Below are positions 5,508-60,935 of a DNA stretch of 64,000 nt, piece by piece. The translations under genes and the position numbers were made by a program. The stretch spans positions 1,862 through 65,861 of the IMG/VR virus record IMGVR_UViG_3300030060_008569; one strand, written 5' to 3'. Source of the stretch: a virus (taxonomy: Duplodnaviria > Caudoviricetes). The notes under the pieces are model-generated. The model worked only from the letters and a program-made list of their open reading frames with translations, did no database searches and was not told the origin of the DNA. Numbering within the stretch: position 1 is the first letter of the stretch; each line of letters starts with the position of its first letter.

Positions 5508-7727
5508 TTAACGAGATGCGTCACAAACATCTACTACATTTATGTAATTAATCAACACCTTGTGATTCTTTTCTCGGTCACTGTCACGGTAGCAGTAAGC
5601 ATCGTACCAATTAATAATGTTAAGCATCGAGTATTTTTCAAGAACCTTCGTGAACCAATCGCTCAAATCGTAGGACGGTTCAGCATTGAACTTGATTTCG
5701 ATTTGCAGTCGGTCATCAATTAGTTCTTTCATGGCGAGCAATTCCTCGCGTTGCTTTTCTGTACCGTACATACGCTTGAAGTTTTTCATGCCCTCCAGTA
5801 CGAGACTATCCTTTGAAGCAAAGTCAGAGTCTTTGATACTTTCACGAACTCGCTCATGCAGTAGGTTGCTGTTATGATTGCAAGCATGGCTGAAGTCTAC
5901 GAACTTCTGTTCGATGTTGTTGGCGGCGAGATGGTTCTTAACCTCCTGTTCCATCCAAACATTTAGCTCGACCCAGCCCTTTGCAGCTTCAGGCTTTTCA
6001 CGCTTGGCAACCTTCCAAGCATAAACATTCTTTGGGAACTTCAGTCCGAGCTTTTCAAACTGAGCCTTCAAGTTACCGATGCGACGAGGTTCGTTGTAAC
6101 CGTAACGACTGGACGTAAACATTGGCTTGAACTTGTCGAGGATGACATAAACTCCTTCACCGCTCTCCAAGTCTACGCTGGCAGCTTTCCAGTAGTCGGA
6201 TGCCTTGTGATTCCATGATGAACCCTTGCACTCCCAATCATACTCGAAAGCAGGACTCGCTAGTTTTTTAGCGTGTTTACGTTCTTCGGCAGTAGCATTG
6301 CCTTTGGTGGTCGTGCTGCTACCGTAGAAATCTGACAATGGGCGTTTGTCCAACTCGGAGAGTTTTAACATTTCGCCATCGTACTTCTTCCGCCACTCTT
6401 TGCGAGCTTGAGGCTTTTCAAATTGCAGAAGGTAAACTTCCTTATTCTCCTCCATTGCCATGCCAAGCAGTCGGCCCAAGATGCCGCGACGATGGCCAAG
6501 GTCGTTCTCTACAATTACTACCTTACTATCGGCAGTAATGTTGCTCCAACCTTCTTCGAGACGGTAACGAATAGCACCGTGCCGACTTGGCTTTTTGAGT
6601 ACCCGCATATCGACATCACTTGGAATTGATACGCCAATACCTTCAATCGGCTTGCCTTTCCATTTGACATTCTCTTCGATAACCTCACGCAACTCATACA
6701 AGCCACTAGCGAAATCACGAACATCACCGAGCAACTGCTTTGCCGCCCAGAGGGTTGGCTTTTCAGCAAACTGCTTTTCAGCTTGAGCTACGATTCCATC
6801 TTTTACTTCACGCAGTTTTGCGATGAGAGTTTTACGAGTCGCCTCAGTGAACTGCAATTTCTCACGGGATGCAGAGATGTCCAAGTCACCGATGTCACAC
6901 TTCAAATGAAGATTACCCTTGACCATATCACTGAGTCCTTCGATGCGTTCTTCGTCAGTGAAGTTGAGGTCTTTGGCAGAGAACGGATAAGCAATGTTAC
7001 CCATGACCGCTTTCGGTTCTTCGTAGCGACTGCTCCACCTATCCCCATCATTCTTGAACCAAGTCCAGTTATCACCCATGAACATTGCTTTCTTCTGAGT
7101 GTATTCAAACTGGTTAGTACCCTTAATGGTTGGGGTAACTTTAAAATACCTAAATAAACCTTCGGCTTTACTAACGAACTCCTCGGTATCTTCTTCTCGT
7201 ACCGGAATAACAATCTCAATACCGTTTTCTTCGTCGGTCTTTTGAGTGCCTATCTTGGAGATTTGACCAACCTGAGATGGGTCGATGAATGCGTTCCAAA
7301 TGTGTTTCTCACCGTCGATGTAAGAATTAATCACAAAGTTATCACCGTATGCAAACGCTGACTTGGAACCAATGCCAAGCATACCTGTTTGCTCATTGGT
7401 GTTACGCTTGGTGGACTCACCATAAAATGCGTAGACATCGTGAATCTCTTCGTCGTTTAGTGCTGGCCCAAAGTCCCGCACCTTAAACTCTAGTTTTAAT
7501 TTAGATGGAAGAGTAACTTCAATCGGACGGTCGCCAATTCCTGCTTCTACATGAGCGTCAACCGCATTACATGAATACTCACGCAGCACCGCAGTAATCT
7601 TGTCAGAGTAAAGCTGATTGCGTAGTACGTTAAAGATGTGAGCAAGTCCGGTACTCTTGATTCCAAACTTTACGGAATCTTGTACGCCTTTGCTTTCGAG
7701 AGAGGTTTGATTTACATTAGGTTTCAT
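5508..7727 (-). CDS. rIIA: rIIA-like protein with N-terminal GHKL ATPase domain
   Basis: LYSDK..AVLRE..CNA.DAH, VRDFG, YGESTK, G.LGIGSKS.FAY, SRE.L; 739 aa; upstream of rIIB; promoter at 7770-7798. Confidence 0.85.
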   Translation of the reverse strand: MKPNVNQTSLESKGVQDSVKFGIKSTGLAHIFNVLRNQLYSDKITAVLREYSCNAVDAHVEAGIGDRPIEVTLPSKLKLEFKVRDFGPALNDEEIHDVYAFYGESTKRNTNEQTGMLGIGSKSAFAYGDNFVINSYIDGEKHIWNAFIDPSQVGQISKIGTQKTDEENGIEIVIPVREEDTEEFVSKAEGLFRYFKVTPTIKGTNQFEYTQKKAMFMGDNWTWFKNDGDRWSSRYEEPKAVMGNIAYPFSAKDLNFTDEERIEGLSDMVKGNLHLKCDIGDLDISASREKLQFTEATRKTLIAKLREVKDGIVAQAEKQFAEKPTLWAAKQLLGDVRDFASGLYELREVIEENVKWKGKPIEGIGVSIPSDVDMRVLKKPSRHGAIRYRLEEGWSNITADSKVVIVENDLGHRRGILGRLLGMAMEENKEVYLLQFEKPQARKEWRKKYDGEMLKLSELDKRPLSDFYGSSTTTKGNATAEERKHAKKLASPAFEYDWECKGSSWNHKASDYWKAASVDLESGEGVYVILDKFKPMFTSSRYGYNEPRRIGNLKAQFEKLGLKFPKNVYAWKVAKREKPEAAKGWVELNVWMEQEVKNHLAANNIEQKFVDFSHACNHNSNLLHERVRESIKDSDFASKDSLVLEGMKNFKRMYGTEKQREELLAMKELIDDRLQIEIKFNAEPSYDLSDWFTKVLEKYSMLNIINWYDAYCYRDSDREKNHKVLINYINVVDVCDASR

Positions 7728-15499: not shown

Positions 15500-15576
15500 G
15501 GGCGAGTAGCTCAGTTGGATAGAGCAACGGTCTTCTAAACCGTGGGTCGCGGGTTCAAGTCCCGCCTTGCCTACCA
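15500..15576 (+). tRNA. tRNA-Arg(UCU) with encoded CCA
   Basis: Acceptor stem GGGCGAG/CTTGCCT, D-arm AGCTCAGTTGGATAGAGC, anticodon loop CTTCTAA, T-loop GTTCAAGTCC, 3' ACCA; upstream TTGACT-17-TAGTAT promoter. Confidence 0.95.
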
Positions 15577-19566: not shown

Positions 19567-19823
19567 GTAGACCAACTAATATATCCGTATATATTTAATA
19601 AAGCAATCCCAAATGATAACATCGCGGGTGGATAAGTTTTCTTCAAACAGCAATAAGTTCCCATTAAAATATTACCAAAAAACCAAACCGGAAAACAACT
19701 AATCATTTGGTTTGCATTGAGATAATAGCCGATGACAATGAAAACCATACTGCCCCAGCCAATAAACTCAGAGTAATCTTTGGCTTTCTGGGCTATCTGG
19801 GAAACATTTTTTTTCAACTTCAT
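19563..19823 (-). CDS. small three-TM membrane protein (PnuC/SemiSWEET-like half-module)
   Basis: Three hydrophobic segments ending LNIYGYISW. Confidence 0.5.
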   Translation of the reverse strand: MKLKKNVSQIAQKAKDYSEFIGWGSMVFIVIGYYLNANQMISCFPVWFFGNILMGTYCCLKKTYPPAMLSFGIALLNIYGYISWST

Positions 19824-20352
19824 AGCAATATTTTAAGAGCTTTTTATCTATGTCTAAAAGTTTTCTAACGTAATCTATTTTAAAATTTTTGAGTTTAAAG
19901 CAATCTGCTTTTGACAGGTCTGCCGAGCATTGACTACCAGCCATTACTCCCATATTAAAAACAAATCTTTCTTGTTCCCCAAAGCTATAACCTTCGGGAA
20001 ATAAATATTTAGCACAAAACATATAAAGATTACGCCGCCAACGCCACATCTTTTTTGTGCTTCCCATCGTGAAGCCTATGACAAACGCCTCATCTTTTAC
20101 TCTGAGTCCTCTACCAAGAAGCAAATGAATGCTGTCATGGTTATAAAGAGAAACATTACCAGCAAATAAACCAATATCATATTTAGGGTTCTCTACAAGT
20201 TTTATAATAAGCGGAACATCCTCCGCTTCTAACTTGAATCCCCCCATCGAATCCAAACCGTCTTTTAGTGTTAAGCCTGTTGTGCTTAACGGTATGTGCC
20301 ATTCGTTTATTTGGCGTTCAGTGTTAAGTTTATGGTCATAAGGCGTTGCCAT
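19768..20352 (-). CDS. Coq4-like protein
   Basis: HDSIH.LLG......EAFV resembles the Coq4 HDxxH-x11-E metal site. Confidence 0.45.
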   Translation of the reverse strand: MATPYDHKLNTERQINEWHIPLSTTGLTLKDGLDSMGGFKLEAEDVPLIIKLVENPKYDIGLFAGNVSLYNHDSIHLLLGRGLRVKDEAFVIGFTMGSTKKMWRWRRNLYMFCAKYLFPEGYSFGEQERFVFNMGVMAGSQCSADLSKADCFKLKNFKIDYVRKLLDIDKKLLKYCYEVEKKCFPDSPESQRLL

Positions 20353-21058
20353 TTTTAAGTTCCTCTTCTAAAGCCCCTGCATACATCTGCCACCAAATAG
20401 ATTCTGCGCGTGGATGTGGGTGAGGTGGATAAGAAAATTCTTTAGGGTATGGTTTCCAAGGTTGCCAATCCATTTGTGTGTAGTGCAGTAAACAAGTTTT
20501 TTCTCTATCGTAAGGTTCACAAACAAATTTATTTTTTTGGTCGCTTGCTATACCTCCATCATTGCAGCACCATTTGTGAGGTAATGGATGCCAATATTTT
20601 GAAAGCCTACCTGAGAAATGGCCTATATGCTCTCCATTCTCATTCTTTTTCATCTCTTCCAAAGAGGGCCAATGGGGTAAACTTTTAAACCTTTCGCATT
20701 CGTAAACAATAACATCTGTTCTTTTAGTGTCCAAAGAAGTCCAAACTTTTCCCTCTGGAATTTCTATATTAAATAAATCCTTCGGGTCTTTAAGAAATAT
20801 TTGGTCTACGTCTAAATATATGGCGCGACCTTTAAACCCGTGAACTTCTGGTATTGCAAACCTAAAGTGAGAAAACTTTGTGTACCAATCTTTTTTATTC
20901 CAGCCTTGCCAATTCTCAGCACCTCTGGCTGTATCCATCCACTCTATAACATAAGGAACTGAGCAGTATTTTTTAATGCTATACTCTAATGCTTTTTCCG
21001 CTTTGCTATTGGCCCCGCCATCAGTACCAACGTAAATGTAAACAGTTTCTTCGCTCAT
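20336..21058 (-). CDS. GT-A glycosyltransferase (GT8-like)
   Basis: IYVGTD, T.FS..RF.IP....FKGRAIYLDVD, LLHYT...QPW. Confidence 0.85.
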   Translation of the reverse strand: MSEETVYIYVGTDGGANSKAEKALEYSIKKYCSVPYVIEWMDTARGAENWQGWNKKDWYTKFSHFRFAIPEVHGFKGRAIYLDVDQIFLKDPKDLFNIEIPEGKVWTSLDTKRTDVIVYECERFKSLPHWPSLEEMKKNENGEHIGHFSGRLSKYWHPLPHKWCCNDGGIASDQKNKFVCEPYDREKTCLLHYTQMDWQPWKPYPKEFSYPPHPHPRAESIWWQMYAGALEEELKNGNAL

Positions 21059-21822
21059 AGAATATTATTTCTAATATGTATTCCTTTGTCGTGTTCTATA
21101 TATTCCGAAAGTTCAGAAAAAGGTATTATCTGATTATTTGTCGCATGACCATTTGAATTTGTATGTTTATTTGCACTTTTACCCTCGGCAAAATCATGAA
21201 ACCATTCTTCTGGGCAAGCCTCCGCCAACTTAGTCATCAAATAACCATCATCCCATCTAGTGTGAGTTTTAAAATTGCCAGACAAAAATAAATCCATAAA
21301 ATAGCCATAGAATTTTTGGGGTTTGAGGCTATTGGTATCTATCACGATAAAACCAGAATCAATCGCTGGCCTATCACCTCTCATAAATCCTATTGGTTTG
21401 CCACCCATAAGGCTACGCAACGTATCATCTCCAAAGGGTTTTTTTATTCTTATGTCGCTATCTACAAATATTAAATAGCCCCCAAACTGTTCGCCATACT
21501 CTTTTATGCAAATCGCATGGTGCGCCATTGCTACTTTTTTAAACCATCCAAACCAGCGTTTGTTCCAAAATTCCTCTCCTGATACTTTGTCTGCGTCACC
21601 TCCGAAAGATTTATGAATTACATCTTTATTGGCTTCAAAAACTTTTTTTACATTCATCAATGTGGCGGTGTTTATTGAAGAAACCCACTTGTCGCAGTCT
21701 TTACTAACAAAGTCAACGTAAGTTACAACGCCAGCAAAAGGTAGGTTTTTTCTAATGCTTTTTATTAAACCTCTACCTGAAAATTGGTACTGTTTATCAT
21801 TGAATGTGCTAAATATTGTCAT
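21055..21822 (-). CDS. GT-A glycosyltransferase-like protein
   Basis: KKVA, IFVDSD (DxD), DSGF, WDDGY, HDKG. Confidence 0.7.
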   Translation of the reverse strand: MTIFSTFNDKQYQFSGRGLIKSIRKNLPFAGVVTYVDFVSKDCDKWVSSINTATLMNVKKVFEANKDVIHKSFGGDADKVSGEEFWNKRWFGWFKKVAMAHHAICIKEYGEQFGGYLIFVDSDIRIKKPFGDDTLRSLMGGKPIGFMRGDRPAIDSGFIVIDTNSLKPQKFYGYFMDLFLSGNFKTHTRWDDGYLMTKLAEACPEEWFHDFAEGKSANKHTNSNGHATNNQIIPFSELSEYIEHDKGIHIRNNIL

Positions 21823-22649
21823 TTTAAGTGTTCCCAAGTTTTACCTGAGCGCATCTCCTTTAAAGTCCACTGACTATAAGCTAAATCATAAGCCCACTGT
21901 TGTCTATCATATAATTCTGGGTGTTCTAAATCAACAATTTTATTTGAAACAAACCAAGCCATTGACCCATTATTCCAAGCAAAGATAGGAATACCCTCAA
22001 TAATTGCCTCAACCAAGGAGTTAGAGTTATAACCCACTGCCGCCCAGCAATTTTCCAAATCTTCTTTCAGAGTTTTTTTATTTGAAATAGTCACCCCAGT
22101 TAACGATTCATAAAAGTTGTCTCCAGCAAGAGGGTGTGGTCTAAAAATGATAGGTCTTTCGCTGTACCTTTTAATTTCATTTACAATAAACTGACACCAC
22201 GTTTTGTAATCTATATGCTGAACTGATGTATCCCAAGGCACTTGCCCGCAAATTAATATGTGGTTGCCTTTAGTTCTATAATCTTTTAACTCTACCCCCA
22301 GTGCCTCCCACCTGTCTTTAGGCATACCCACATTCTTAAAGTCAGCCCAGCCATTTTGAGAACCATACCCAACTGAAAAATATTTATCTCTTTTTATATA
22401 ACCCTTTTCAATTACTATAGTTTTTTTATTTTTTAATTTTTGTTCAACGGCTAGTATGTCTCTTATTTTAGTCCATTTAAATTTCTTTTTATATATCCCC
22501 CAAGAAACCGCTATGTCACATTCTTTAAGTTTACAATCGTATTCAATAAAAGAATTTTCATATTTTGAAACACCCCTATACATAGCTTTTAAAGCTAGTC
22601 TATGTTCATCCTGTTGATTAGGAGTATAAAAGAATCCGACTGTTTTCAT
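21819..22649 (-). CDS. capsule polysaccharide biosynthesis (KpsS/KpsC-like) protein
   Basis: IE.GY, ICGQVPWDTS, FRPHP, YNSNSLVEAIIEGIP. Confidence 0.75.
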   Translation of the reverse strand: MKTVGFFYTPNQQDEHRLALKAMYRGVSKYENSFIEYDCKLKECDIAVSWGIYKKKFKWTKIRDILAVEQKLKNKKTIVIEKGYIKRDKYFSVGYGSQNGWADFKNVGMPKDRWEALGVELKDYRTKGNHILICGQVPWDTSVQHIDYKTWCQFIVNEIKRYSERPIIFRPHPLAGDNFYESLTGVTISNKKTLKEDLENCWAAVGYNSNSLVEAIIEGIPIFAWNNGSMAWFVSNKIVDLEHPELYDRQQWAYDLAYSQWTLKEMRSGKTWEHLK

Positions 22650-23227
22650 TAGTCGGTGGGCTTGCCTTGGAAGTCTGATGGGTTTAGCTCGTGAAATTGC
22701 CAATCTGTTTTTTGAGACTCGCTACCATCTCCATCTTTTTGGGAGTTTCCTTCTTCACCTTTCGGGCCGTTTTTCGGCTCCCCTCTTTTAAGTTTACCCA
22801 ATGTGGGCTGACCTTTCTTGAGTTTTGGTATTAAACTTTTTTCAAGTTTTTCGTGCAATTCCCTATTATAATCTAGTGAAAATAATCTAGGTTCTATACC
22901 TTCGTTTGCATAGCCAAAAAACCTACCAATAGTATTAGCTTTATGTTCCTCGGCAGTTTCTAAAAGAACGTAAATCTTTCCGTCAAATTCTTTTAACTTA
23001 TTTGGCTCTTTTATAATTACCCAATGAATCAACACCTTTTCAGGCATATCATCTTGAAGCGCGGGCCAACCTAAAAAGGTATGAATTGTAGTCCAGAATA
23101 TAACTGTAAAAGCGCAGAAAGTTGCGATACAGGCTGTCTTTATATACCACTTAACATTTGATTCGGTAAGTATCCAGAAGCTCAAGCCTCCAAATATTAA
23201 TAATAAAATTGGTAATGCTATATTCAT
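22649..23227 (-). CDS. two-TM membrane protein, putative partner of the MotA/ExbD-like pair
   Basis: Two N-terminal TM helices, LGWP, then soluble domain EPRLFSLDY. Confidence 0.65.
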   Translation of the reverse strand: MNIALPILLLIFGGLSFWILTESNVKWYIKTACIATFCAFTVIFWTTIHTFLGWPALQDDMPEKVLIHWVIIKEPNKLKEFDGKIYVLLETAEEHKANTIGRFFGYANEGIEPRLFSLDYNRELHEKLEKSLIPKLKKGQPTLGKLKRGEPKNGPKGEEGNSQKDGDGSESQKTDWQFHELNPSDFQGKPTD

Positions 23228-23470
23228 TTCTTGTTCTCCATTATCCAATGATACAAGGTGCTACTTCCATGTCCGTAACCATAAGGTAGCGGGCGATAAT
23301 CCTTTGTCTGCATCTCTGGCGGCTTTCCCCACTTGGCAGGGAAAGGTTTGCCACTTGGACTATAATATGTAGTTGGCTCGCAGTCTAAACAGCAGCACCC
23401 AACTAAATAAAAACTCATTATTAATATGGTATTTTTAAGCATCATCAGATTCAAATAATTTTTGCAATCT

Positions 23471-23938
23471 TCATCTTGCATGGTTGACCTTCATTCCCAA
23501 CCTAGAGACACTAATAAATGCCAGCAAACGCTCCCAACTTTTCTCTACATTATCATCCGTGTTCATATTTACGTCAGGATTCCCTATTTCAAAATTTTCA
23601 ACGTGATACTCTTTTCTTAACACCCTGTTAGACTGCAACAAAATTTCAATTACCTGACCCATGTTGTGTTGTTTTAGTTCCGCCCTTAAATGCTGATAAG
23701 GGTTTACTAAACTCATAATTACATGTCCATCGGGGTTAGTTTTTTTATTTAAATAGGTTGCAACGGCATTTGCATTTCTAATATTTAGCTCACGACCATC
23801 CTTGCCGTAATTCAAATTTGAAAACATTGCCCTAAACTCGTCGCCGTCTATAACAAAAGGGGTTTCAAAATGTTCTGCAAGCAAATTTCCTAAAGTAGTT
23901 TTGCCAGAAGCGGGCTGACCATATAAAACATAAATCAT
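23471..23938 (-). CDS. cysC: adenylylsulfate kinase-like P-loop kinase
   Basis: LYGQPASGKTT, IDGDEFR, Y..DGR..NI, SLVNPY...R. Confidence 0.75.
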   Translation of the reverse strand: MIYVLYGQPASGKTTLGNLLAEHFETPFVIDGDEFRAMFSNLNYGKDGRELNIRNANAVATYLNKKTNPDGHVIMSLVNPYQHLRAELKQHNMGQVIEILLQSNRVLRKEYHVENFEIGNPDVNMNTDDNVEKSWERLLAFISVSRLGMKVNHAR

Positions 23939-23941
23939 TTC

Positions 23942-24532
23942 TTATCTTAAGGAGTTTACTAATTTTGCGGGCAACTCATTAGTTTCTAAAACATTTCCAA
24001 GGTCATCTGTTTTAAATCTAAAAGCAGTCTTTTCCTGTCCGGTAGATTCAAACATTATTTCTTTTTTAACAATCTCTTTGTAGGGTTTTACTTTTATTAA
24101 AGTAATAGTAGCCTTAACAGGTGCGTCATCCATTTTTGAATAAACGTGGACAGTAACTATGTTTTCTCCTTGTATGACACCTCTAAAAGAAACAACCTCT
24201 TCATTGTAATTTACAACAGTTCCCGCCACGCCTTGTCCTAAACTGTTATTTCTACTTTTACCTAAAGCATCATGGTCTAAGCTAATTAAACTTCCATCTC
24301 CACCTTCCCTATTATTAAAGCTGACTATATGACCTGATGCAGCTTTAACATAAATATCTAAATCATCATTACTTTCCCCATCCCAAGTTAAGACAACCTC
24401 ATAAATAACATTGGGTGGCCTAGCCTTAGTCTTTTCCTCCTCGGTTTTTAAAAGAAATAAAATTGCCACCAACATCAGAAGGCAACAAAACAATACATCA
24501 ATAAACGGCCTAAATGAAAAGAACCTCCTCAT
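23942..24532 (-). CDS. ExbD/TolR/MotB-like single-TM protein with YfaP/DUF2135-like soluble domain
   Basis: PFIDVLF TM carrying the conserved Asp; V.LTW....DLDIYV and LDHD motifs. Confidence 0.65.
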   Translation of the reverse strand: MRRFFSFRPFIDVLFCCLLMLVAILFLLKTEEEKTKARPPNVIYEVVLTWDGESNDDLDIYVKAASGHIVSFNNREGGDGSLISLDHDALGKSRNNSLGQGVAGTVVNYNEEVVSFRGVIQGENIVTVHVYSKMDDAPVKATITLIKVKPYKEIVKKEIMFESTGQEKTAFRFKTDDLGNVLETNELPAKLVNSLR

Positions 24533-24756
24533 CCGTCATCACCTATCGCCTCTACTGGACAGTTTTCCAAAGCCTCTGCACAAAGGTCTGCTTCACCCTG
24601 CTCTTCAGGCTGCTTGTAAACGTAAGAATAGCCATCCTCATGGTTGGTGAAGTTGTCTGGTGCTAGTTCACGGCATAAATTACAATCAATACACTCAGTA
24701 TCGACATAGAACTTACCAGCTACATTATCTTCGTATTTATCTTCTTTAGCTGCCAT
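24529..24756 (-). CDS. ferredoxin (single Fe-S cluster)
   Basis: GKFYVDTECIDCNLC...APDNF...CPVEAI. Confidence 0.92.
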   Translation of the reverse strand: MAAKEDKYEDNVAGKFYVDTECIDCNLCRELAPDNFTNHEDGYSYVYKQPEEQGEADLCAEALENCPVEAIGDDG

Positions 24757-25231
24757 TTGAATTTTCCTCTAACTTAAACTTTAATATCATAAGTTGAACT
24801 TGCAAGGGTAAACTAAAAATAATGCCACAAATTGTTGTGTAAAAGGCGGTATTTAACCCCTCTTTCAGCCCCGCAACGATTTCAGAAGTAGGCATGGAAC
24901 TGTCCAAGCTACCTTTTGTTGCTATCACCAAACCAATAATTGTACCTAAAAGTCCCAAAGAAAAGAAATGCTCCGCCGTAAACCAGCCCATGTCTGCCCT
25001 TTTTGTTAAATAAGTTACAGCCTCTTTCTTCTTTCTTTTATTTATCTTATCTGATAAGAAACATAACCTTCCAACATATAAAGACATAATTACATATAAA
25101 GACATAATTAGAATTGAAAGATGAGAAAGGTCGTTTGTTATTATTTCGCTGATTATTTTATTTTGCTCTGCAAAGAATATAGCAGTAGCTACAATAGCAT
25201 TTAAAAGGAACCATTTGGTAAAAGTGTTCAT
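24746..25231 (-). CDS. MotA/TolQ/ExbB proton-channel family protein
   Basis: Four TMs; LGLLGTIIGL and GLNTAFYTTICG match the family's last two TM helices. Confidence 0.8.
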   Translation of the reverse strand: MNTFTKWFLLNAIVATAIFFAEQNKIISEIITNDLSHLSILIMSLYVIMSLYVGRLCFLSDKINKRKKKEAVTYLTKRADMGWFTAEHFFSLGLLGTIIGLVIATKGSLDSSMPTSEIVAGLKEGLNTAFYTTICGIIFSLPLQVQLMILKFKLEENSNGS

Positions 25232-25243
25232 GGTATTTCTTTA

Positions 25244-26083
25244 TTATTTACACCATTCTTTTACAATATTTTTAATTACAAAGGCTAAATTCTTCCATTC
25301 TTTAAGTCTCCGTAGAGTATAGGGGAGCCAATTTTCGCCAAAAGGCACATATATTCTAACTTTATGACCTTTATTTTTGTAATTTTCCTGCAAATCTCTT
25401 CTTATTCCGTATAAAAATTCGTAGTCAAAAAACTTGGGATTCGGGATTAGCTCCTCTATATCTTCTAACAACTCTTCGTCATGGGTAGCTATGGCTGGTT
25501 TATTTGCCTTATTTGCGTACAAACTTGCAGCATAGTTATAAAAACAGCCACTAATATCAAAATAGTGTTGGTAAGCTATTTTTTCACTCTCCTTGTACGC
25601 CCCTTTAACCAAGCGAACCGATATGTTACTTTTTATAAGTTTTTGCAGGTCAACTGCGGTTCTTAAAAGGTTGGCTTGAATGGCAACGCCAACATTTCCG
25701 AACCTTTTATTTAAAAGGATGGCTAAGTCTATGGTTATATCGGTCACACGCGAATCTTCCATATCTAAACGAATTGTATGGCCTTTTTTATTTGCAAGTT
25801 TTGCTATGAAGGCCATGAGGCCAATAGCCATTTTCGGATTTATATGTACGCCTAATTGTGAAGGCTTTATAGATATATCAATTTTTTCATTTGAAAAAGA
25901 ATTTATAATTCTTATGTATTGATGTTTCGCTTTGTAACAGTCTAACGAGTTTTTACTTTCTTCCCCCACATAATCAACAGACACTTCGTAACCATCTTCA
26001 ATCAGTTTATTTATTACTGGCTTGGCCGATTCAAGGGTGTGACCAGCAATAAACCTCTTTGCCAGTGGATACAAAAATCTCAT
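25244..26083 (-). CDS. monofunctional proline dehydrogenase
   Basis: RFIAG, D.VGE, SIKPSQLG, RLDMED, IQA.L.R, VRLVKGAY.E, IATHD, LYGIR, IYVPFG..W.PY..RRL.E. Confidence 0.93.
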   Translation of the reverse strand: MRFLYPLAKRFIAGHTLESAKPVINKLIEDGYEVSVDYVGEESKNSLDCYKAKHQYIRIINSFSNEKIDISIKPSQLGVHINPKMAIGLMAFIAKLANKKGHTIRLDMEDSRVTDITIDLAILLNKRFGNVGVAIQANLLRTAVDLQKLIKSNISVRLVKGAYKESEKIAYQHYFDISGCFYNYAASLYANKANKPAIATHDEELLEDIEELIPNPKFFDYEFLYGIRRDLQENYKNKGHKVRIYVPFGENWLPYTLRRLKEWKNLAFVIKNIVKEWCK

Positions 26084-27015
26084 TTTAATTGATTCCTCAA
26101 GTAAAGATTGTAAACTAAAATTCCAATAGCAATATCTTCTAGTGATACTCCAGTAGAATCAAAGACAGATACTCCCGCCTCTAAACTAATTTGCTTGTTG
26201 TTTTTAATAACGTGTCGCAAAGACCAAGTGTTCAAGTCTTGCCCAAATCTATATTGCAATTCTCCAGAATGAAACGCTTGAGCAGGGTCATCACATATTA
26301 TATTTGAAGCTCCAGCAATTACATTTTTCATAAGTTCCCTTTTTCCTACTGCATCTGCACCTACTGCATTAACATGACAGTTATCTTTTAGGTAATTAAA
26401 ATCTAAATATGGCTCTGTAGATGGAGTAAGTGTTGTTACCAAGTCTGCTTGCCTGACAGCTTCTTTTACGTTTGATGGGTATTTAATTACATTTAAACTT
26501 TTTGGAATCTTATCAGCAAGTTTTTGAATTGCTTCTTCGTTTTTATCGTAAAGAGAAACTGTTTTAATATCTGGGAAAACGCTCCTGTAAGCTAAAAAAT
26601 GATAGTAAGCCTGAAGGCCGCAGCCGACAAATGCAATTTCTCTTATATTATTTGGCAAACAATACTTAGCAGCTATGGCCGAGGTGGCCGCAGTTCTATA
26701 AGCAGTAAGGGTGGTGCAATCCATAGCCATTAATGGCTGACCCGTCTCTCTATCGTTAAGAAGAAGTGTTCCTAGTGTTGTTGGTAAAGAGTTAACTAAA
26801 TGATTGTTTGGATAAACCCCAATCCATTTTAAGCAAGCATAATCTCCTAAAGCCGCTGGCATTGCACGAAAATCTCCTTGTGTGTGAGTATCTAGGTAAA
26901 TCTTGGGAACCATCTTTGCAGACTCATCTAGGAAAGCGCTTTCGATAGAAGGTATTATTTTACCCCACTCTTTGTCGAGTAAGTGTGCAACTCCCAAGTC
27001 GTTTAATTGCTTCAC
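26080..27015 (-). CDS. ornithine cyclodeaminase / mu-crystallin family protein
   Basis: FRAMPA, KW.GV.P.N, LTAYRTAA.SA.AA, G.G.QA, HVNAVGAD..GKREL, FDSTG.SLED. Confidence 0.9.
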   Translation of the reverse strand: MKQLNDLGVAHLLDKEWGKIIPSIESAFLDESAKMVPKIYLDTHTQGDFRAMPAALGDYACLKWIGVYPNNHLVNSLPTTLGTLLLNDRETGQPLMAMDCTTLTAYRTAATSAIAAKYCLPNNIREIAFVGCGLQAYYHFLAYRSVFPDIKTVSLYDKNEEAIQKLADKIPKSLNVIKYPSNVKEAVRQADLVTTLTPSTEPYLDFNYLKDNCHVNAVGADAVGKRELMKNVIAGASNIICDDPAQAFHSGELQYRFGQDLNTWSLRHVIKNNKQISLEAGVSVFDSTGVSLEDIAIGILVYNLYLRNQLK

Positions 27016-35390: not shown

Positions 35391-36926
35391 TTATTTCATT
35401 CCTTGTGGAAAAGTTAATTTGTCTGCGTGGTTAACAGTCCAGCTAATTTCATGGGTAACAGCCCTGAATGTTCTTGCTGCACTAGGAAATCCATTGCCAG
35501 ATTTTTTAACACCGCCGAAAGCTAAGTGCGATTCAGCAGCGATTGAACCTCCGTTCCAGTATATCATGCCAGCATCGCATTCGTCTCTCATTACTCTTGC
35601 TTTTCTAAAGTCATTTGTCAACACTCCAACAGCTAAACCATATTCAGTATCATTGTAAATTCTAATAGCATCCTCGACTGTATCAAAGGGAATTATTGCT
35701 ACATGAGGCCCGAACACTTCATTCCTTAGAAAACCTGCATCGCAGTTAGTCCATTCTCTTTTATAAACCATTGGAGTGCTGTAGTATGCTCCGTTTTCAC
35801 CAGTGTAAACAGGGTCAAGTAACACTTCAGCTTTTGGGTCTGAGTGTACCAGTTTATTCATGAATCTTATCTTACTAAACCCTTGCTCATTAATAATTGG
35901 GCCATAGTATATATCTTCGTTTGGTACTAGCTCTTCCCAAACCATTCCATCTGGACAACCAGATGAGCCAAGCATAGATTTGAATGGGTTCCCTGTTTTT
36001 ATTTGTTTAGCTTTTGCAGCAAATTTCTCGGAAAACTCATGGTATATACTTCGCTGTACAATCATTCTACCAGATGATACGCAACGCTGACCAGACAGCT
36101 TAAATGCACTAGCAATAGAAGCCTCAATGGCTAAATCAATTTCAACGTCATCAAAAACAATGCAAGCGGATTTACTACCTAATTCGCATGAGGTAGTTTT
36201 GTGCCATGATTCAGCAGCAACTTTACGAATGTGTTGTCCGACATCAGCACTACCAGTAAAACAGATGTGGTCGCAATTACCCCTAACCAAAAAATCGCCA
36301 GTAGCACCATCGCCATGCACCAAGTTAATGACCCCACGAGGGATGCCAGCCTCCTCATAAATTTGAACAGCGGCTTGAGTTGACATTGGTGCGTCTTCAC
36401 TTGGTTTAATTACAATAGTATTCCCCTCTACTAAAGCTGGGGCAGCGTTCCAAAACATGCCTATTGCCAGCGGAAAGTTAAATGGAGTTACAATAGCTAT
36501 TACACCTTTAGGCTTTCGTAGCATATACGCATCTTTTTCAGCAATTTCTGAAGAAACAGCTTCGCCATGACTATAACGGCCAGAACCAAAAGCAAACTGT
36601 GCCATGTGCAAGGCTTCATTAACCTCTGCGATACTTTCGTTGTAGTTTTTCCCTGTTTCAAGTGAAATAATCGTAGCTAATTTATTTTTATCCCTTTCAA
36701 TTATTTGAGCAACCTTATTTAAATAATCTGAACGGGTAAATCTACTAACCTTTTTCCAAGTTTTAAAAGCCTCTCTAGCAGAAAGTAGCGCCTTGCCAAC
36801 CTCATCCTTGCAACTTAAGGGGAACGCACCTTGCGCCTTTCCGGTTGCAGGGTTAATTTTAGTATACATGTCGGCGGTAGCTCGCCACACGCCATTGATA
36901 TAGTTCCTACCTTCGAAATCCCTCAT
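35391..36926 (-). CDS. NAD(P)+-dependent aldehyde dehydrogenase
   Basis: PFNFP, KPSE, FTGS..VG, ELGSKS (catalytic Glu), GQRC (catalytic Cys), EVFGP, FGGVKKSG; start MRDFEG overlaps the upstream stop (ATGA). Confidence 0.95.
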   Translation of the reverse strand: MRDFEGRNYINGVWRATADMYTKINPATGKAQGAFPLSCKDEVGKALLSAREAFKTWKKVSRFTRSDYLNKVAQIIERDKNKLATIISLETGKNYNESIAEVNEALHMAQFAFGSGRYSHGEAVSSEIAEKDAYMLRKPKGVIAIVTPFNFPLAIGMFWNAAPALVEGNTIVIKPSEDAPMSTQAAVQIYEEAGIPRGVINLVHGDGATGDFLVRGNCDHICFTGSADVGQHIRKVAAESWHKTTSCELGSKSACIVFDDVEIDLAIEASIASAFKLSGQRCVSSGRMIVQRSIYHEFSEKFAAKAKQIKTGNPFKSMLGSSGCPDGMVWEELVPNEDIYYGPIINEQGFSKIRFMNKLVHSDPKAEVLLDPVYTGENGAYYSTPMVYKREWTNCDAGFLRNEVFGPHVAIIPFDTVEDAIRIYNDTEYGLAVGVLTNDFRKARVMRDECDAGMIYWNGGSIAAESHLAFGGVKKSGNGFPSAARTFRAVTHEISWTVNHADKLTFPQGMK

Positions 36927-37480
36927 TTTCTTGTACTTTCCATTAATCCTTTTACGTTGTCCTTGCAAAACCCATCTCCAGTTCTATTTATAAGCTCATA
37001 AATGACTCCCGTCAACTCAGAAGGCTTTGTAAATACCTGAACTAAACCTTCGCACCTCAAGGGTGCGCTCGAATAAAATTCAGCATAACCAGCATTAAGC
37101 CACATTTTCATTGTAGCATCAACATCTTCTACTTGATAAGCTATATGATGAACTCCGGGTCCATTTTCCTCAACCCAGTCACCCACAATAGAGCCTTTGG
37201 GTCCGTCACTAACGAATATTTCAGGGGGAGAGTGGTAGGGGTGGAATTGAGCCTCAACTTTTTGACCTTTAGAGTCTGGAGCGTCAGCTAAAAGCACCTC
37301 CCATTCTGAGATTTCAGGATGCCTCTCTTCTGGTGGGAGTAAAGCTAGGCACTCCGCCTTAGTCCCATCACTGAAATCTATTTCAAATTCTGTGCCAAGC
37401 GTATACCCCAAGCACCTTTTAAGAAATTTGGCTGTTTTTTTCCTGTTTTTTACTCTGTAGGCTATATGGTCTAACCTCAT
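36923..37480 (-). CDS. VOC-family enzyme resembling the catalytic domain of 4-hydroxyphenylpyruvate dioxygenase
   Basis: LDHIA, GPGVHHIAY, LVQVFTKP, YELINR..GF...N; His/His/Glu triad. Confidence 0.75.
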   Translation of the reverse strand: MRLDHIAYRVKNRKKTAKFLKRCLGYTLGTEFEIDFSDGTKAECLALLPPEERHPEISEWEVLLADAPDSKGQKVEAQFHPYHSPPEIFVSDGPKGSIVGDWVEENGPGVHHIAYQVEDVDATMKMWLNAGYAEFYSSAPLRCEGLVQVFTKPSELTGVIYELINRTGDGFCKDNVKGLMESTRK

Positions 37481-41010: not shown

Positions 41011-41413
41011 TGGTGGAGGCGAGGGGAGTCGAACCCCTGTCTTTGGAGCCTATCGGCTCAGACTTCTACAAGCTTAGTCGGTGTTAAATACTCGCTTGGC
41101 ATGTCACCGACAAACGGCCTACACGAGTTTTGAGCAACCTTTTATCCTAGTGCTGCTCGGCCCTAGTTTTTTGCCCGCTATCGACGCCCTAGCTCCTTAA
41201 CGAGCATCCAGAGTAGGACGGGTAACTTACGCAGTTACAGCAGCTTCTTCAGCCCAGCCGAACTTAGCGAGAATCGCATCAGCTTCAGCAAGTGAAGGAG
41301 CCATATCAACATTATTGGCAGTTGAATTACCTTGATAGATGATTTAAGAGGCCGACTATCATCCTCTGCTTGCTATCTGGCGTAAGAACCCAAATCGAAT
41401 CCAGTACGCCCCC
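41011..41413 (-). ncRNA. ssrA: tmRNA
   Basis: 5' GGGGGCGTACTGGATTCGA; 3' GACAGGGGTTCGACTCCCCTCGCCTCCACCA; internal tag reading frame 41319-41227. Confidence 0.93.
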
Positions 41414-58460: not shown

Positions 58461-60935
58461 ATGAGCTCCACACAAATAAATATCAAAAAACGCAACGGCA
58501 AACTTGAGAAGTTAAACATTAATAAAATAAATCTACGCGCAGAAATAGCGTGCGAGGGCTTAGAAGAGACATCCGCCAGTGAGATAGTGTTGGACGCACA
58601 CGTTCAATTCTACGACAAAATCACTACTCAGGAAATAGACAAGGCTCTCATTATGTCTGCCCGTCAGAAAATTGAAAAAGAGCCTAATTATGCGTATGCT
58701 GCTGGTAGACTTTTAGTTTCGAACATACATAAAGAAGTCTTCGGTGAAAGCCATGATAAAGATATTTTTCAAGCTCAATATAAAAACGCCTTTGTAAGAA
58801 ATTTAAAGAAGTTAATTAAGTTCGGAACGCTCAGAAAAGAGCTTTTAGACTTCGACCTGAAAGCTCTGGCAGAAGCTATAGACCCAGACAGGGATTTAAA
58901 ATTTAAATACCTTGGGGCACAAATAATCTACGACAGATACCTTCTTCACATAGATGGAAAACGACTAGAGACACCTCAAGCATTTTGGATGAGAGTGGCA
59001 ATGGGTCTGGCCATAAATGAAAAAGATAAAAATAATAAAGCTATCGAATTTTATAACGCGCTATCGCAGTTCCATCTTTGTTGCTCCACTCCTACCCTTT
59101 TTAATAGCGGGAGTGTTCGTAGTCAACTGTCTAGTTGTTATCTCAATACTTTTGATGACTCTATTGACGGTATTTTCGAAGGGGCTTGGCAGGAAGCTAG
59201 GAAATCTAAATACGCGGGAGGGCTAGGGTTTGACGTTACCAATTTTCGTTCGTCTGGCGCGTACATTAAGGGAACCAACGGAACATCAAGCGGTTTAGTT
59301 CCTTGGCTTAAAATTTACAACGACCTTTTAGTAGCAGTTAATCAAGGCGGAAAAAGGCCGGGAGCGGGTTGCGCTTATATTGAGCCTTGGCACTTGGATA
59401 TTGAAGAGTTCCTTGACCTCAAGAAAAACACAGGAGACGAACGCAGAAGGTGTCACGATTTAAACACGGCTAACTGGCTACCAGACCTTTTCTTGAAAAA
59501 AATCAACAATGACGAGGATTGGTATCTATTCTCTCCCTCGGATGTCAGGGACTTGCACGAATCTTTTGGCTCTGACTTCGATAAGAAGTACAAGAAGTAC
59601 TGCAAGCAAGCTGATGACGGGACCATAAAGAACTTCAAGGTAATTAAAGCCAAAGACCTATGGAAAAGAATGCTAAGAGTACTCTTTGAAACAGGTCACC
59701 CTTGGATGACCTTTAAAGACAATGCTAACATGCGTTACTCAAACTCTCATGAAGGGGTTGTCCACAGTTCCAATTTATGTACGGAAATCTTCCTACACAC
59801 AAAGCCCTCTCAATTCGACAAGGGGGTGAAGACGGAGGTTGGAGAAACAGCGGTTTGCAATTTAAGCTCTGTGAACCTAAAAGAACACCTAAAAGATAAT
59901 GGAGAATTAGACTTCAAGCTCCTATCAAAGACTATAGCAACGCAGATGCGCATGCTGGACAATGTTATTGATTTAAACTTTTACCCAACCAAGGAAGCAG
60001 AAAACTCAAACCTAAAACACCGCCCAGTAGGAGCTGGTTCGATGGGGTGGGCCGATGTGTTTAACTCTTACGAGGTAAACTTTTCTAGCGATGAAGCTGT
60101 AAAGTTCTCAGACGAATTGTATGAGTTTATTTCTTATCATTGCATCCTTAATTCTACTAAAATAGCAAAAGAAAAGGGAACCTACTCCACCTATGAAGGC
60201 TCCCTATGGAGTCAGGACACTCTGCCTATTGACACATACAAAAATTTGATAGATTATTTAGGTGAGAAGCAAATGATTCACAGGGGTAAAAAATATTGCC
60301 CTGAATTAGATTGGAAAAAAGTAAGGAGTCATATAAAAGAACATGGAATGCGTAATAGTAATACTATGGCAATTGCTCCAACCGCAACCATATCTTATAT
60401 CCAAGGTTGCTCTCCTTGCATTGAACCAGACTTTTCTGTATTTTTCGTTTACGAGAATAAAAGCGGGAATCTGACCATTATTAATGAGTGGTTCGTGAAG
60501 AAGTGCAAAGAGCTAAACATTTGGACTCCCAGCTTGATAGAAGCAATTAAAGCTGTTGATGGAGACCTGTCTAGTATCAGCGACGAGGTTATTCCTAAAG
60601 ACGTTAAAGAGCAGTTTAAGACCGCCTTTGACCACGACCAGTTTAAGCTAATTGAAGGTGCAGCCGCTAGACAGAAATGGATTGATATGGGGCAGTCCCT
60701 TAACCTATTCAACGACAATACGAGCTTGAAGTACCTCAATGACTTGTATATGTTCGCTAGAGCAAAGGGCTTAAAATCTACATACTATTTAAGGAATAAA
60801 AGTGCGAGCAAAATTGAGAAATCGACTGCGAATAGCGGTAACATTAATAATAGTGAGTCAAGTGGTGTTGATGGTGATAACATTACTGCTGAGGCTTGCT
60901 CAATCTTAGACCCAGAATGTGAAAGTTGTCAATAA
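58461..60935 (+). CDS. nrdA: class I ribonucleotide reductase alpha subunit with ATP cone
   Basis: IKKRNG ATP cone, TPTLFNSG, QLSSC, QGGKRPGA, SNLCTEI, VCNL.S, AIAPTA, YYLR, C-terminal CESCQ. Confidence 0.97.
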   Translation: MSSTQINIKKRNGKLEKLNINKINLRAEIACEGLEETSASEIVLDAHVQFYDKITTQEIDKALIMSARQKIEKEPNYAYAAGRLLVSNIHKEVFGESHDKDIFQAQYKNAFVRNLKKLIKFGTLRKELLDFDLKALAEAIDPDRDLKFKYLGAQIIYDRYLLHIDGKRLETPQAFWMRVAMGLAINEKDKNNKAIEFYNALSQFHLCCSTPTLFNSGSVRSQLSSCYLNTFDDSIDGIFEGAWQEARKSKYAGGLGFDVTNFRSSGAYIKGTNGTSSGLVPWLKIYNDLLVAVNQGGKRPGAGCAYIEPWHLDIEEFLDLKKNTGDERRRCHDLNTANWLPDLFLKKINNDEDWYLFSPSDVRDLHESFGSDFDKKYKKYCKQADDGTIKNFKVIKAKDLWKRMLRVLFETGHPWMTFKDNANMRYSNSHEGVVHSSNLCTEIFLHTKPSQFDKGVKTEVGETAVCNLSSVNLKEHLKDNGELDFKLLSKTIATQMRMLDNVIDLNFYPTKEAENSNLKHRPVGAGSMGWADVFNSYEVNFSSDEAVKFSDELYEFISYHCILNSTKIAKEKGTYSTYEGSLWSQDTLPIDTYKNLIDYLGEKQMIHRGKKYCPELDWKKVRSHIKEHGMRNSNTMAIAPTATISYIQGCSPCIEPDFSVFFVYENKSGNLTIINEWFVKKCKELNIWTPSLIEAIKAVDGDLSSISDEVIPKDVKEQFKTAFDHDQFKLIEGAAARQKWIDMGQSLNLFNDNTSLKYLNDLYMFARAKGLKSTYYLRNKSASKIEKSTANSGNINNSESSGVDGDNITAEACSILDPECESCQ

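Follow-up and report, generated by a model that had tools for sequence, protein, structure and literature searches.

A conserved gene trio, probably a Tol/Ton-like ion-motor module, in an uncultured marine T4-like phage

The window analysed here, a stretch of 64,000 nt within a 65.9-kb viral record (IMG/VR IMGVR_UViG_3300030060_008569), carries a run of eight minus-strand open reading frames (ORFs) at positions 22649–27015, all of which had been located correctly in a prediction made from the letters alone (hereafter, the original prediction). Three of these genes, designated A (24746–25231), B (23942–24532), and C (22649–23227), form a conserved module that occurs in bacteria as well as in two or more phage groups unrelated to each other. 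We consider it probable that the run is a string of independently shuffling cassettes, one of which, A-B-C, is the phage copy of a conserved Tol/Ton-like ion-motor module; the cassettes belong to a plastic region of early genes in a marine T4-like phage that has not been cultured. The trio is read as an ion-driven envelope machine with its work in the periplasm on account of the homology of A and B, and because its gene order and its possession of a third, membrane-anchored protein resemble those of TolQRA and ExbB-ExbD-TonB.

Distribution of the trio among phages and bacteria

The proteins encoded in the window were mapped by tblastn, within ±6 kb, onto a related viral set of 34 distinct IMG/VR contigs, which includes near-duplicates (e.g., L005/L006, L023/L026, and L041/L043). 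Gene A directly preceded B in all 34 contigs, with a gap of no more than 44 nt in 27 of them. Gene C was found downstream on the same strand in 21 of the 34, and in 19 of the 20 that had at least 5.4 kb of downstream flank, at distances of 0.6–6.1 kb from the start of B. In five relatives with larger gaps, the A|B junction was occupied by unrelated inserts (L004 5840–6001, L012 5780–5986, L022 5362–5985, L024 4327–5442, and L030 5486–5998), which comprised ORFs of 53, 68, and 87 aa with one transmembrane (TM) helix, an 89-aa ORF, and proteins of 170 and 371 aa. The A|B junction is a recurrent insertion site in the related phages, and the ferredoxin gene that separates A from B in the window is one more such insert.

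A similar arrangement was observed on bacterial chromosomes. A narrower B profile identified at least 584 relatives in species-representative genomes, the best 80 of which served as the bacterial loci, and the stop-to-stop ORFs of these loci were scanned with profiles of A, B, and C; the A profile included one bacterial locus (L133), and the C profile was composed of phage sequences only. All three genes were found in 76 of the 80 loci; once the start codons had been refined, 74 showed the A-B-C order on a single strand, mostly with abutting genes. When the C protein of the window was itself used as a tblastn query, it matched the gene following B in 63 of the 80 loci. The original prediction had put C forward as a partner to be tested with the A-B pair, and in bacteria, as in other phages, it is indeed conserved as the third gene of the module. 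The neighbours of the trio in three bacterial loci that were inspected were ordinary chromosomal genes (Suf, TilS, TctC, and ABC transporters). The idea that short-A copies on small contigs of metagenome-assembled genomes (MAGs) represent mis-binned phage was considered and dropped; the copy in L059 is chromosomal, because it is flanked by SufBCD, an aspartate dehydrogenase, and an ABC transporter.

The second phage group consists of Rhizobium phages, of which 23 records matched B. In three of these loci that were inspected (from phages of 171, 69, and 159 kb), a MotA_ExbB-like gene was followed by B and then by a third gene in every case. The third gene encodes a protein of 146–154 aa with two N-terminal hydrophobic helices, which can be aligned with C at the G[WY]P and PRL motifs that both contain (hhalign probability 74.6%, E = 2.6e-5, over only 37 columns).

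The B family is large. A B profile detected 1163 representative clusters (50% identity) at E ≤ 1e-3 in a library of 1.84 billion proteins, nearly all of them about 200 aa long and matching end to end; the close marine relatives of B number 818. A maximum-likelihood tree was built from 93 B proteins, and in it the copies accompanied by a long A formed a clade of 70 rows (support 97/90) that broadly followed taxonomy, and the marine-phage and Rhizobium-phage copies lay on separate long branches, a placement subject to midpoint rooting and long-branch caveats. One contig binned as Sphaerisporangium (Actinomycetota) carries a B nearly identical to that of a Hyphomicrobiales MAG (loci L090 and L129); the two come from the same sample series and have end branches of 0.006 and 0, and this is probably a binning error.

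Several gene associations recur around the bacterial trio. It adjoins a set encoding an ABC ATPase, a YNCE-like beta-propeller, a Peripla_BP_6-like protein, and an ABC-2 permease in 12–13 of the 80 loci; this set lies upstream on the same strand in L081, L085, L106, L107, L113, L116, L117, and L131–L133 and is divergent in L054, L055, and L059. In Sphaerotilaceae/Comamonadaceae, the trio and the four-gene set all lie on one strand, seven genes in total. The set presumably resembles a transporter cluster associated with quinoprotein dehydrogenases. A protein with VWA and FHA domains follows the trio in 17 of the 80 loci, mostly gammaproteobacterial (e.g., L063 6334–7929), and in about 20 loci, the genes ahead of it encode a YkuD L,D-transpeptidase and a DUF302 protein. 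A VWA protein also occurs about 2 kb downstream of the trio in Rhizobium phage RHph_I1_18.

In the open-access literature, with supplementary tables (e.g., those of PMC12505986) outside the scope of the search, we found no description of the trio, no phage MotA/ExbB-ExbD pair, no phage combination of ornithine cyclodeaminase (OCD) and proline dehydrogenase (ProDH), and no paper for DUF2135. A 2025 survey of MotAB homologues describes many generic ion transporters whose function is unknown and which carry DUF appendages such as DUF3450 and DUF2341 (PMC12505986).

Features of the three subunits

Subunit A is a protein of 161 aa encoded on the minus strand at 24746–25231. It matches Pfam MotA_ExbB (PF01618) across residues 91–156 with 28.2 bits against a cut-off of 22.9, and with that cut-off passed, the MotA/ExbB-like assignment of the original prediction holds. 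The A proteins of the Rhizobium phages and bacteria also match this family, some of them below the cut-off. When cultured phages were searched by tblastn with A as the query, nothing matched at 1e-3. Judged by inspection of the sequence, four hydrophobic helices are present in A, the second of which is followed in the phages by a loop of about 23 basic residues; this loop is about 60–110 residues longer in most bacterial copies. Across 48 aligned A sequences, the helix motifs GLLGT..G and TAL.TT..G are kept, residues G93, G96, G100, G125, A129, T133, G136, and Q146 are invariant, and T132 is a threonine in 46 sequences and a serine in two. T132 and T133 would be the equivalents of the ion-path threonines of ExbB and TolQ.

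Subunit B, encoded at 23942–24532 on the minus strand, has no Pfam match and consists of an ExbD-like TM helix followed by a predicted beta-sandwich. The N-terminal helix carries the motif RPFIDVLF, and the aspartate that the original prediction had singled out in PFIDVLF (Asp12) is invariant in 11 aligned B proteins and again in 68 diverse ones, with F[LI]D[LV]LFN as the family-wide consensus of the helix. Among the 68 members, five matched Pfam ExbD at E < 0.1 (best E = 0.018) and two gave a weak match to MotB_plug. An OmpA-like peptidoglycan-binding domain was found neither in the B protein of the window nor among the top families of the 68 members. The model of B (mean pLDDT 66, from a shallow alignment of eight close sequences) contains one helix (residues 8–34) and then beta strands that form an all-beta domain, in which the acidic motifs W..S.DD.D and LD.DD.G are conserved. 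From the positive-inside rule, this beta-sandwich is predicted to be periplasmic. The original prediction of a MotA/ExbB-like and ExbD-like pair with a non-canonical periplasmic domain was borne out.

The identity of the B domain was only partly as proposed. In favour of the YfaP/DUF2135-like label, hhalign aligned the 68-protein B profile with residues 138–226 of E. coli YfaP (probability 87.6%, E = 3.5e-6), and a protein cluster neighbouring B in the Atlas is auto-named YfaP/DUF2135. However, Pfam DUF2135 (PF09906) matched neither the B protein of the window, nor any of the 68 members, nor any part of the whole viral record, and because this model never matches, we call the domain DUF2135/PPC-like and not a member of that family. 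YfaP itself differs from B in lacking a fusion to an ExbD-like helix and in being encoded in an alpha-2-macroglobulin operon. B also aligned weakly with the beta-jelly-roll C-domains of subtilisin-like proteases, with which it shares the motif W-D..s.D-[LV]-D-L..V..P.G. A sequence search of the PDB with the B profile gave nothing below E = 0.09, Foldseek on the model gave nothing at E ≤ 0.001 (the best consistent match was DUF4425), and a wider fold search returned generic beta-sandwiches only (best Z = 5.8).

Subunit C is encoded at 22649–23227 on the minus strand and has no Pfam match. It starts with ATG, and all homologues begin with a sequence similar to MNIALP or MNIAFP. Its model (mean pLDDT 78.9) contains a helical hairpin (residues 4–22 and 27–51), which fits the label of a two-TM protein given in the original prediction, followed by strands 64–73, 84–91, and 114–119, a helix at 122–137, and strands 142–148 and 176–180. 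In the model, this beta1-beta2-beta3-helix-beta4-beta5 order is that of an OB-fold. Beyond the OB-like part, the chain continues with a linker that is charged and of low complexity and ends in a C-terminal motif that is conserved, and the C proteins share the motifs GWP, EP, PR(A/L)(Y/F), and LH. The positive-inside rule suggests that the OB-like domain faces the periplasm. Foldseek on the C model gave weak OB-fold matches only, all with E > 0.4, and a wider fold search was filled by helical hairpins, such that the OB-like part was barely probed.

The same order of a TM hairpin, three strands, a helix, and two strands characterises DUF4131, the N-terminal module of ComEC, which Baker et al. 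(2016; PMC5031224) describe as a TM pair with a DNA-binding OB fold that also exists in stand-alone forms. Weak matches to Pfam DUF4131 occurred in 11 of the 41 C proteins scanned (best E = 9.6e-5). We treat the link as a lead only, because the C protein of the window has no match to DUF4131, hhalign of C against the N-terminus of YcaI, the ComEC homologue of E. coli, was negative (probability 1.2%), and the structural matches to OB folds are weak. Unlike ComEC, C has no competence or nuclease domain. Neither B nor C belongs to a Pfam, NCBIfam, PHROG, or PADLOC family.

The genes tolQ-tolR-tolA and exbB-exbD-tonB encode, in this order, a channel ring, a single-TM subunit with a conserved aspartate, and a membrane-anchored periplasmic partner, and the trio follows the same order. 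It further resembles these systems in the membership of A in Pfam MotA_ExbB, in the conserved pair of threonines in the last helix of A, and in the N-terminal TM helix of B with its P-[FL]-[IL]-D-V motif and invariant aspartate. It differs from them in that A has four helices by inspection and, in the phages, almost no cytoplasmic domain, in that the periplasmic part of B is a beta-sandwich rather than the ExbD/TolR fold, and in that C has two TM helices and, in the model, an OB-like domain without any TonB/TolA family match. With MotA-MotB and PomA-PomB, the trio shares the probable four-helix layout of A, the position of the aspartate near the cytoplasmic end of the B helix, and the weak matches to MotB_plug (2 of 68). 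In contrast to those pairs, B has no OmpA-like domain, A has no large cytoplasmic torque interface, and a third subunit is present.

Other genes of the run and the proposed coupled operon

The run begins with an OCD-family gene (26080–27015; Pfam OCD_Mu_crystall PF02423, 226.5 bits, 5e-67) and a ProDH gene (25244–26083; Pfam Pro_dh PF01619, 98.2 bits against a cut-off of 27, 8e-28), and then A, a gene for a 75-aa ferredoxin with a single 4Fe-4S cluster (24529–24756; Pfam Fer4_13, 3e-19), B, a small P-loop kinase gene (23471–23938; Pfam APS_kinase, 7e-9, partial), an 85-aa ORF (23224–23481; no Pfam match), and C, all on the minus strand. Consecutive genes are separated by, in this order, an overlap of 4 nt, a gap of 12 nt, overlaps of 11 and 4 nt, a gap of 3 nt, an overlap of 11 nt, and a gap of 2 nt. 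Marine metagenome runs from several studies hold near-identical DNA, and no RNA run is listed among them. A marine contig from an independent study, about 2% divergent, bridges positions 23456–25830 in the order kinase, B, ferredoxin, A, and ProDH; the location of the ferredoxin gene between A and B, as originally described, is therefore real DNA and the gene order is not an assembly artefact. At 23452–23456, near the junction between the kinase and the 85-aa ORF, the strain with about 2% divergence contains 263 extra letters in a contig that is otherwise collinear.

The assignments of the ProDH and the ferredoxin in the original prediction were confirmed by these Pfam scores, and two others were confirmed in part. 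The OCD-family gene clearly belongs to OCD_Mu_crystall, but its score for the NCBIfam ornithine cyclodeaminase equivalog was only 146.5 against a cut-off of 350, and it was likewise below the cut-offs for archaeal AlaDH, the highest-scoring equivalog (197.5/409), and the Pyr2C/Pip2C reductase (148.8/322). It encodes an NAD(P) enzyme of the OCD/mu-crystallin family, which may be of the cyclodeaminase, pyrroline-2-carboxylate reductase, or alanine dehydrogenase type. The ProDH reached 169 bits against NCBIfam ProDh_Thermus, below the cut-off of 500, and is predicted to be monofunctional and of the Thermus type. The APS-kinase-like label is backed by a Pfam score of 36.3 bits, but the match covers only profile positions 6–108 of 152 and the NCBIfam apsK score is 34 against 138.7; the protein is probably a small P-loop kinase resembling APS kinase and adenylate kinase, and its gene is a common but mobile neighbour. 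The 85-aa ORF has no family in Pfam, PHROGs, NCBIfam, or the defence-library scans. Its translation contains a hydrophobic stretch ending in LVGC, a lipoprotein-like signal, and it could be a small phage lipoprotein. PHROGs contains no family for the OCD-family protein, A, the ferredoxin, B, the 85-aa ORF, or C.

The original prediction had joined these genes into one operon: proline made by OCD would be oxidised by ProDH, with the ferredoxin as electron carrier, and the resulting membrane potential would be used or sensed by the MotA/ExbD-like complex. The tight, overlapping junctions of the run, the translational nesting of the ferredoxin gene between A and B, and the recurrence of the gene order in an independent sample are what such an operon would look like, and in the related viruses the ferredoxin gene directly follows B in two contigs (L013 and L032), and OCD and/or ProDH lie within 6–10 kb of the trio in 11 of the 34 relatives and also in the viral genome G001. 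However, the survey of synteny across IMG/VR that the original prediction had proposed found OCD, ProDH, and ferredoxin to be largely unlinked to A-B-C. The ferredoxin gene was between A and B in none of the 34 contigs; apart from the two in which it directly follows B, it was 2–5.3 kb downstream in four and not present in the locus in 28, and the A|B junction accepts unrelated inserts. OCD was found within 6 kb in 6 of the 34 contigs, ProDH in 10, the kinase in 25, and the 85-aa ORF in 18, and all four occurred on either side of A-B in varying positions and order. The nearly complete genome G002 (158 kb, 91% complete; locus L032) contains A, B, C, the ferredoxin, and the kinase, but a search of its whole record found no ProDH or OCD. 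G003 (66% complete) has neither of the two, and in G001 (69% complete), ProDH and then OCD form an overlapping pair about 10 kb from B.

Beyond these viruses, tblastn detected no OCD, ProDH, ferredoxin, kinase, or 85-aa ORF in any of the 80 bacterial loci, and the trio was also unaccompanied by OCD, ProDH, and ferredoxin in the three Rhizobium-phage loci inspected. Biochemically, ProDH is an FAD enzyme that passes its electrons to quinones, not to ferredoxin, and any respiring host already supplies the ion gradient for a motor. With synteny in the 34 viral, 80 bacterial, and three Rhizobium-phage loci speaking against it, an operon in which amino-acid oxidation and a ferredoxin feed or inform the motor seems highly improbable. 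OCD and ProDH are adjacent, in both orders, in the window, L009, L013, and G001 and apart in L025, L031, and L033; they seem to form a separate metabolic pair whose linkage is loose.

The phage origin of the window was confirmed by the viral record and by PHROG matches to T4-like early genes for a clamp-loader-like protein (1289–2371), RIIA (5508–7727), and RNR (58461–60935). RIIA has no more than 34% identity to those of cultured phages, to which this phage is only distantly related, and a nucleotide search found no counterpart of the region among cultured phages. No flagellar genes occur near the run. IMG/VR classes the record ends as 'provirus', and CheckV estimates its completeness at 42%; the gene content is that of a lytic T4-like phage, and the 'provirus' label may reflect the host-like metabolic genes. 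Elsewhere in the window are a full-length tmRNA gene (41011–41413, minus strand; ARAGORN tag peptide AEADAILAKFGWAEEAAVTA; Rfam RF00023, 138.6 bits against a cut-off of 47, E = 3.7e-54, model positions 1–374 of 374) and a tRNA-Arg(TCT) gene (15500–15576, plus strand; ARAGORN and Rfam), which lies on the strand opposite to most of the surrounding genes. A 525-aa protein of phrog_15577, a family of unknown function, is encoded at 35391–36968 (minus strand) and has homologues of about 31% identity in the bacterial loci L103 (46–1059) and L109 (8809–10200). Directly downstream of C, four minus-strand ORFs of 294, 260, 240, and 194 aa (19768–22703) matched no NCBIfam family, and the 294-aa ORF also lacked a Pfam or PHROGs match; the 194-aa ORF recurs across related contigs.

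Proposed mechanism, alternatives, and significance

By homology, A would form a ring of the MotA/ExbB type in the inner membrane, within which the TM helix of B, bearing Asp12, would carry protons (or Na+) past Thr132 and Thr133 of A. The two subunits may assemble in the 5:2 stoichiometry of MotAB and ExbBD. The ion flow would turn or switch the complex, and its work would be delivered in the periplasm through the beta-sandwich of B and through C. In B, the place that the peptidoglycan-binding domain occupies in MotB/TolR is probably taken by this sandwich as an anchor that binds a polymer or Ca2+, and C would contribute a TM hairpin with its OB-like domain and conserved C-terminal tail facing the periplasm. 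The OCD-family enzyme and ProDH would then be a separate proline-catabolism pair of auxiliary metabolic genes, with the ferredoxin, the kinase, and the small lipoprotein-like ORF as further separate cassettes. The phage trio most likely acts on the envelope during infection, perhaps by stabilising or remodelling it or by closing the periplasm to a second infection, and an action on metabolism is unlikely.

Several observations weigh against parts of this reading. The B protein of the window had no match to Pfam ExbD (PF02472) at E ≤ 1. C failed every TonB/TolA test tried: no Pfam match was found at E ≤ 0.1 in the 41 C members, and no TonB/TolA row occurred in either fold-search list for C, in which the OB-like part was barely probed. 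The phage A has no equivalent of the cytoplasmic domain of all studied family members and, for this reason, may not work as a motor. The putative 5:2 assembly has no backing from a structure or complex; a complex prediction for A, B, and C scored 0.01 against a mark of 0.32 and, having been run without controls, weighs neither way. As for the independence of the cassettes, the run is translationally tight (overlaps of 4 and 11 nt), and all of its genes could well be transcribed together, because a promoter and terminator scan showed nothing above shuffled sequence. OCD and ProDH recur within about 10 kb of the trio in several relatives. The ferredoxin gene abuts B in three of the seven ferredoxin-bearing loci (the window, L013, and L032), an adjacency somewhat above random placement that leaves room for a loose ferredoxin-motor link. 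The output of the motor and its benefit to the phage are guesses.

The small size of the phage A also bears on a rather doubtful alternative, in which the trio would be a gated ion leak or membrane-potential device, that is, a regulated proton channel built from the minimal A ring and B, which C would gate or for which it would act as a sensor. The phage could use such a channel to time lysis, to shut down the host, or to depolarise the membrane and so exclude a superinfecting phage. The loss of nearly the whole cytoplasmic domain present in bacterial homologues would suit a channel, as would the occurrence in the same window of RIIA, which is tied to membrane and lysis control, and the fact that the periplasmic domain of B is not a known anchoring domain. 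However, the trio consists of vertically inherited chromosomal genes in many Proteobacteria, in which a leak would be costly, and the conserved periplasmic domains of B and C point to a periplasmic output. The bacterial copies, which lie among housekeeping genes and in no obvious defence islands, likewise speak against the notion that the trio is a counter-measure to, or mimic of, the MotAB-type systems of the host, made to poison or replace TolQRA or ExbBD, systems that colicins and other phages take advantage of, or to hinder Zorya. In its favour, the only matches of A in the defence libraries were to the TM cores of ZorA (E-values between 6e-7 and 6e-3 in PADLOC, and of 1.3e-5 in NCBIfam), and ZorA-ZorB is itself a non-flagellar MotAB-like pair tied to phage-host conflict. 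Yet A scored 24.3 bits against the NCBIfam ZorA cut-off of 500, which places it outside ZorA and reflects the common MotA/ExbB core; it is 161 aa long, compared with 380–700 for the ZorA profiles, and has no long tail. Also unlike Zorya, the trio is here carried by the phage, B and C match no Zorya or other defence model, and no ZorC/D-like genes are present. We regard the counter-measure as scarcely credible.

Within the preferred reading of the trio as an envelope machine, a more specific and speculative version can be proposed. A-B-C may represent an unrecognised class of MotAB-type motor, in which a periplasmic OB-fold subunit similar to the ComEC N-terminus and a Ca2+/polymer-binding sandwich grip or move a periplasmic polymer; we hold this to be possible but unlikely. 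If true, the substrates of such a polymer-gripping motor could be incoming DNA, glycan strands, or secreted polysaccharide, and phages as dissimilar as marine T4-likes and Rhizobium phages of 68 kb would have captured a minimal, PMF-driven motor. They might handle DNA or the wall in the periplasm with it while infecting, for example, to exclude superinfecting genomes or to aid entry or exit.

The interest of the locus rests on the trio and not on metabolic coupling. For genome scanning, it carries the caution that tight, overlapping strings of genes in the plastic regions of T4-like phages can mimic single-pathway operons and yet be cassette mosaics. Flagella, Ton-dependent uptake, maintenance of the envelope by Tol-Pal, gliding, and Zorya defence are all driven by MotAB-type 5:2 motors, and whenever one more motor of this type came to be understood, it revealed another use of the proton gradient outside the cytoplasm. 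The trio belongs to a large family, with its 1163 clusters of B and at least 584 matches in species-representative genomes, and B and C are in no curated family. Its carriers in culture, namely the Rhizobium phages (among them P10VF, RL38J1, and the RHph_I1_18 group) and the bacteria Piscinibacter sakaiensis and Pelomonas, make it directly testable. The trio is a genuine and conserved variation on the theme of 5:2 motors that has apparently escaped study, carried by chromosomes and by unrelated phage lineages, and its phage form is minimal and suited to structural work.

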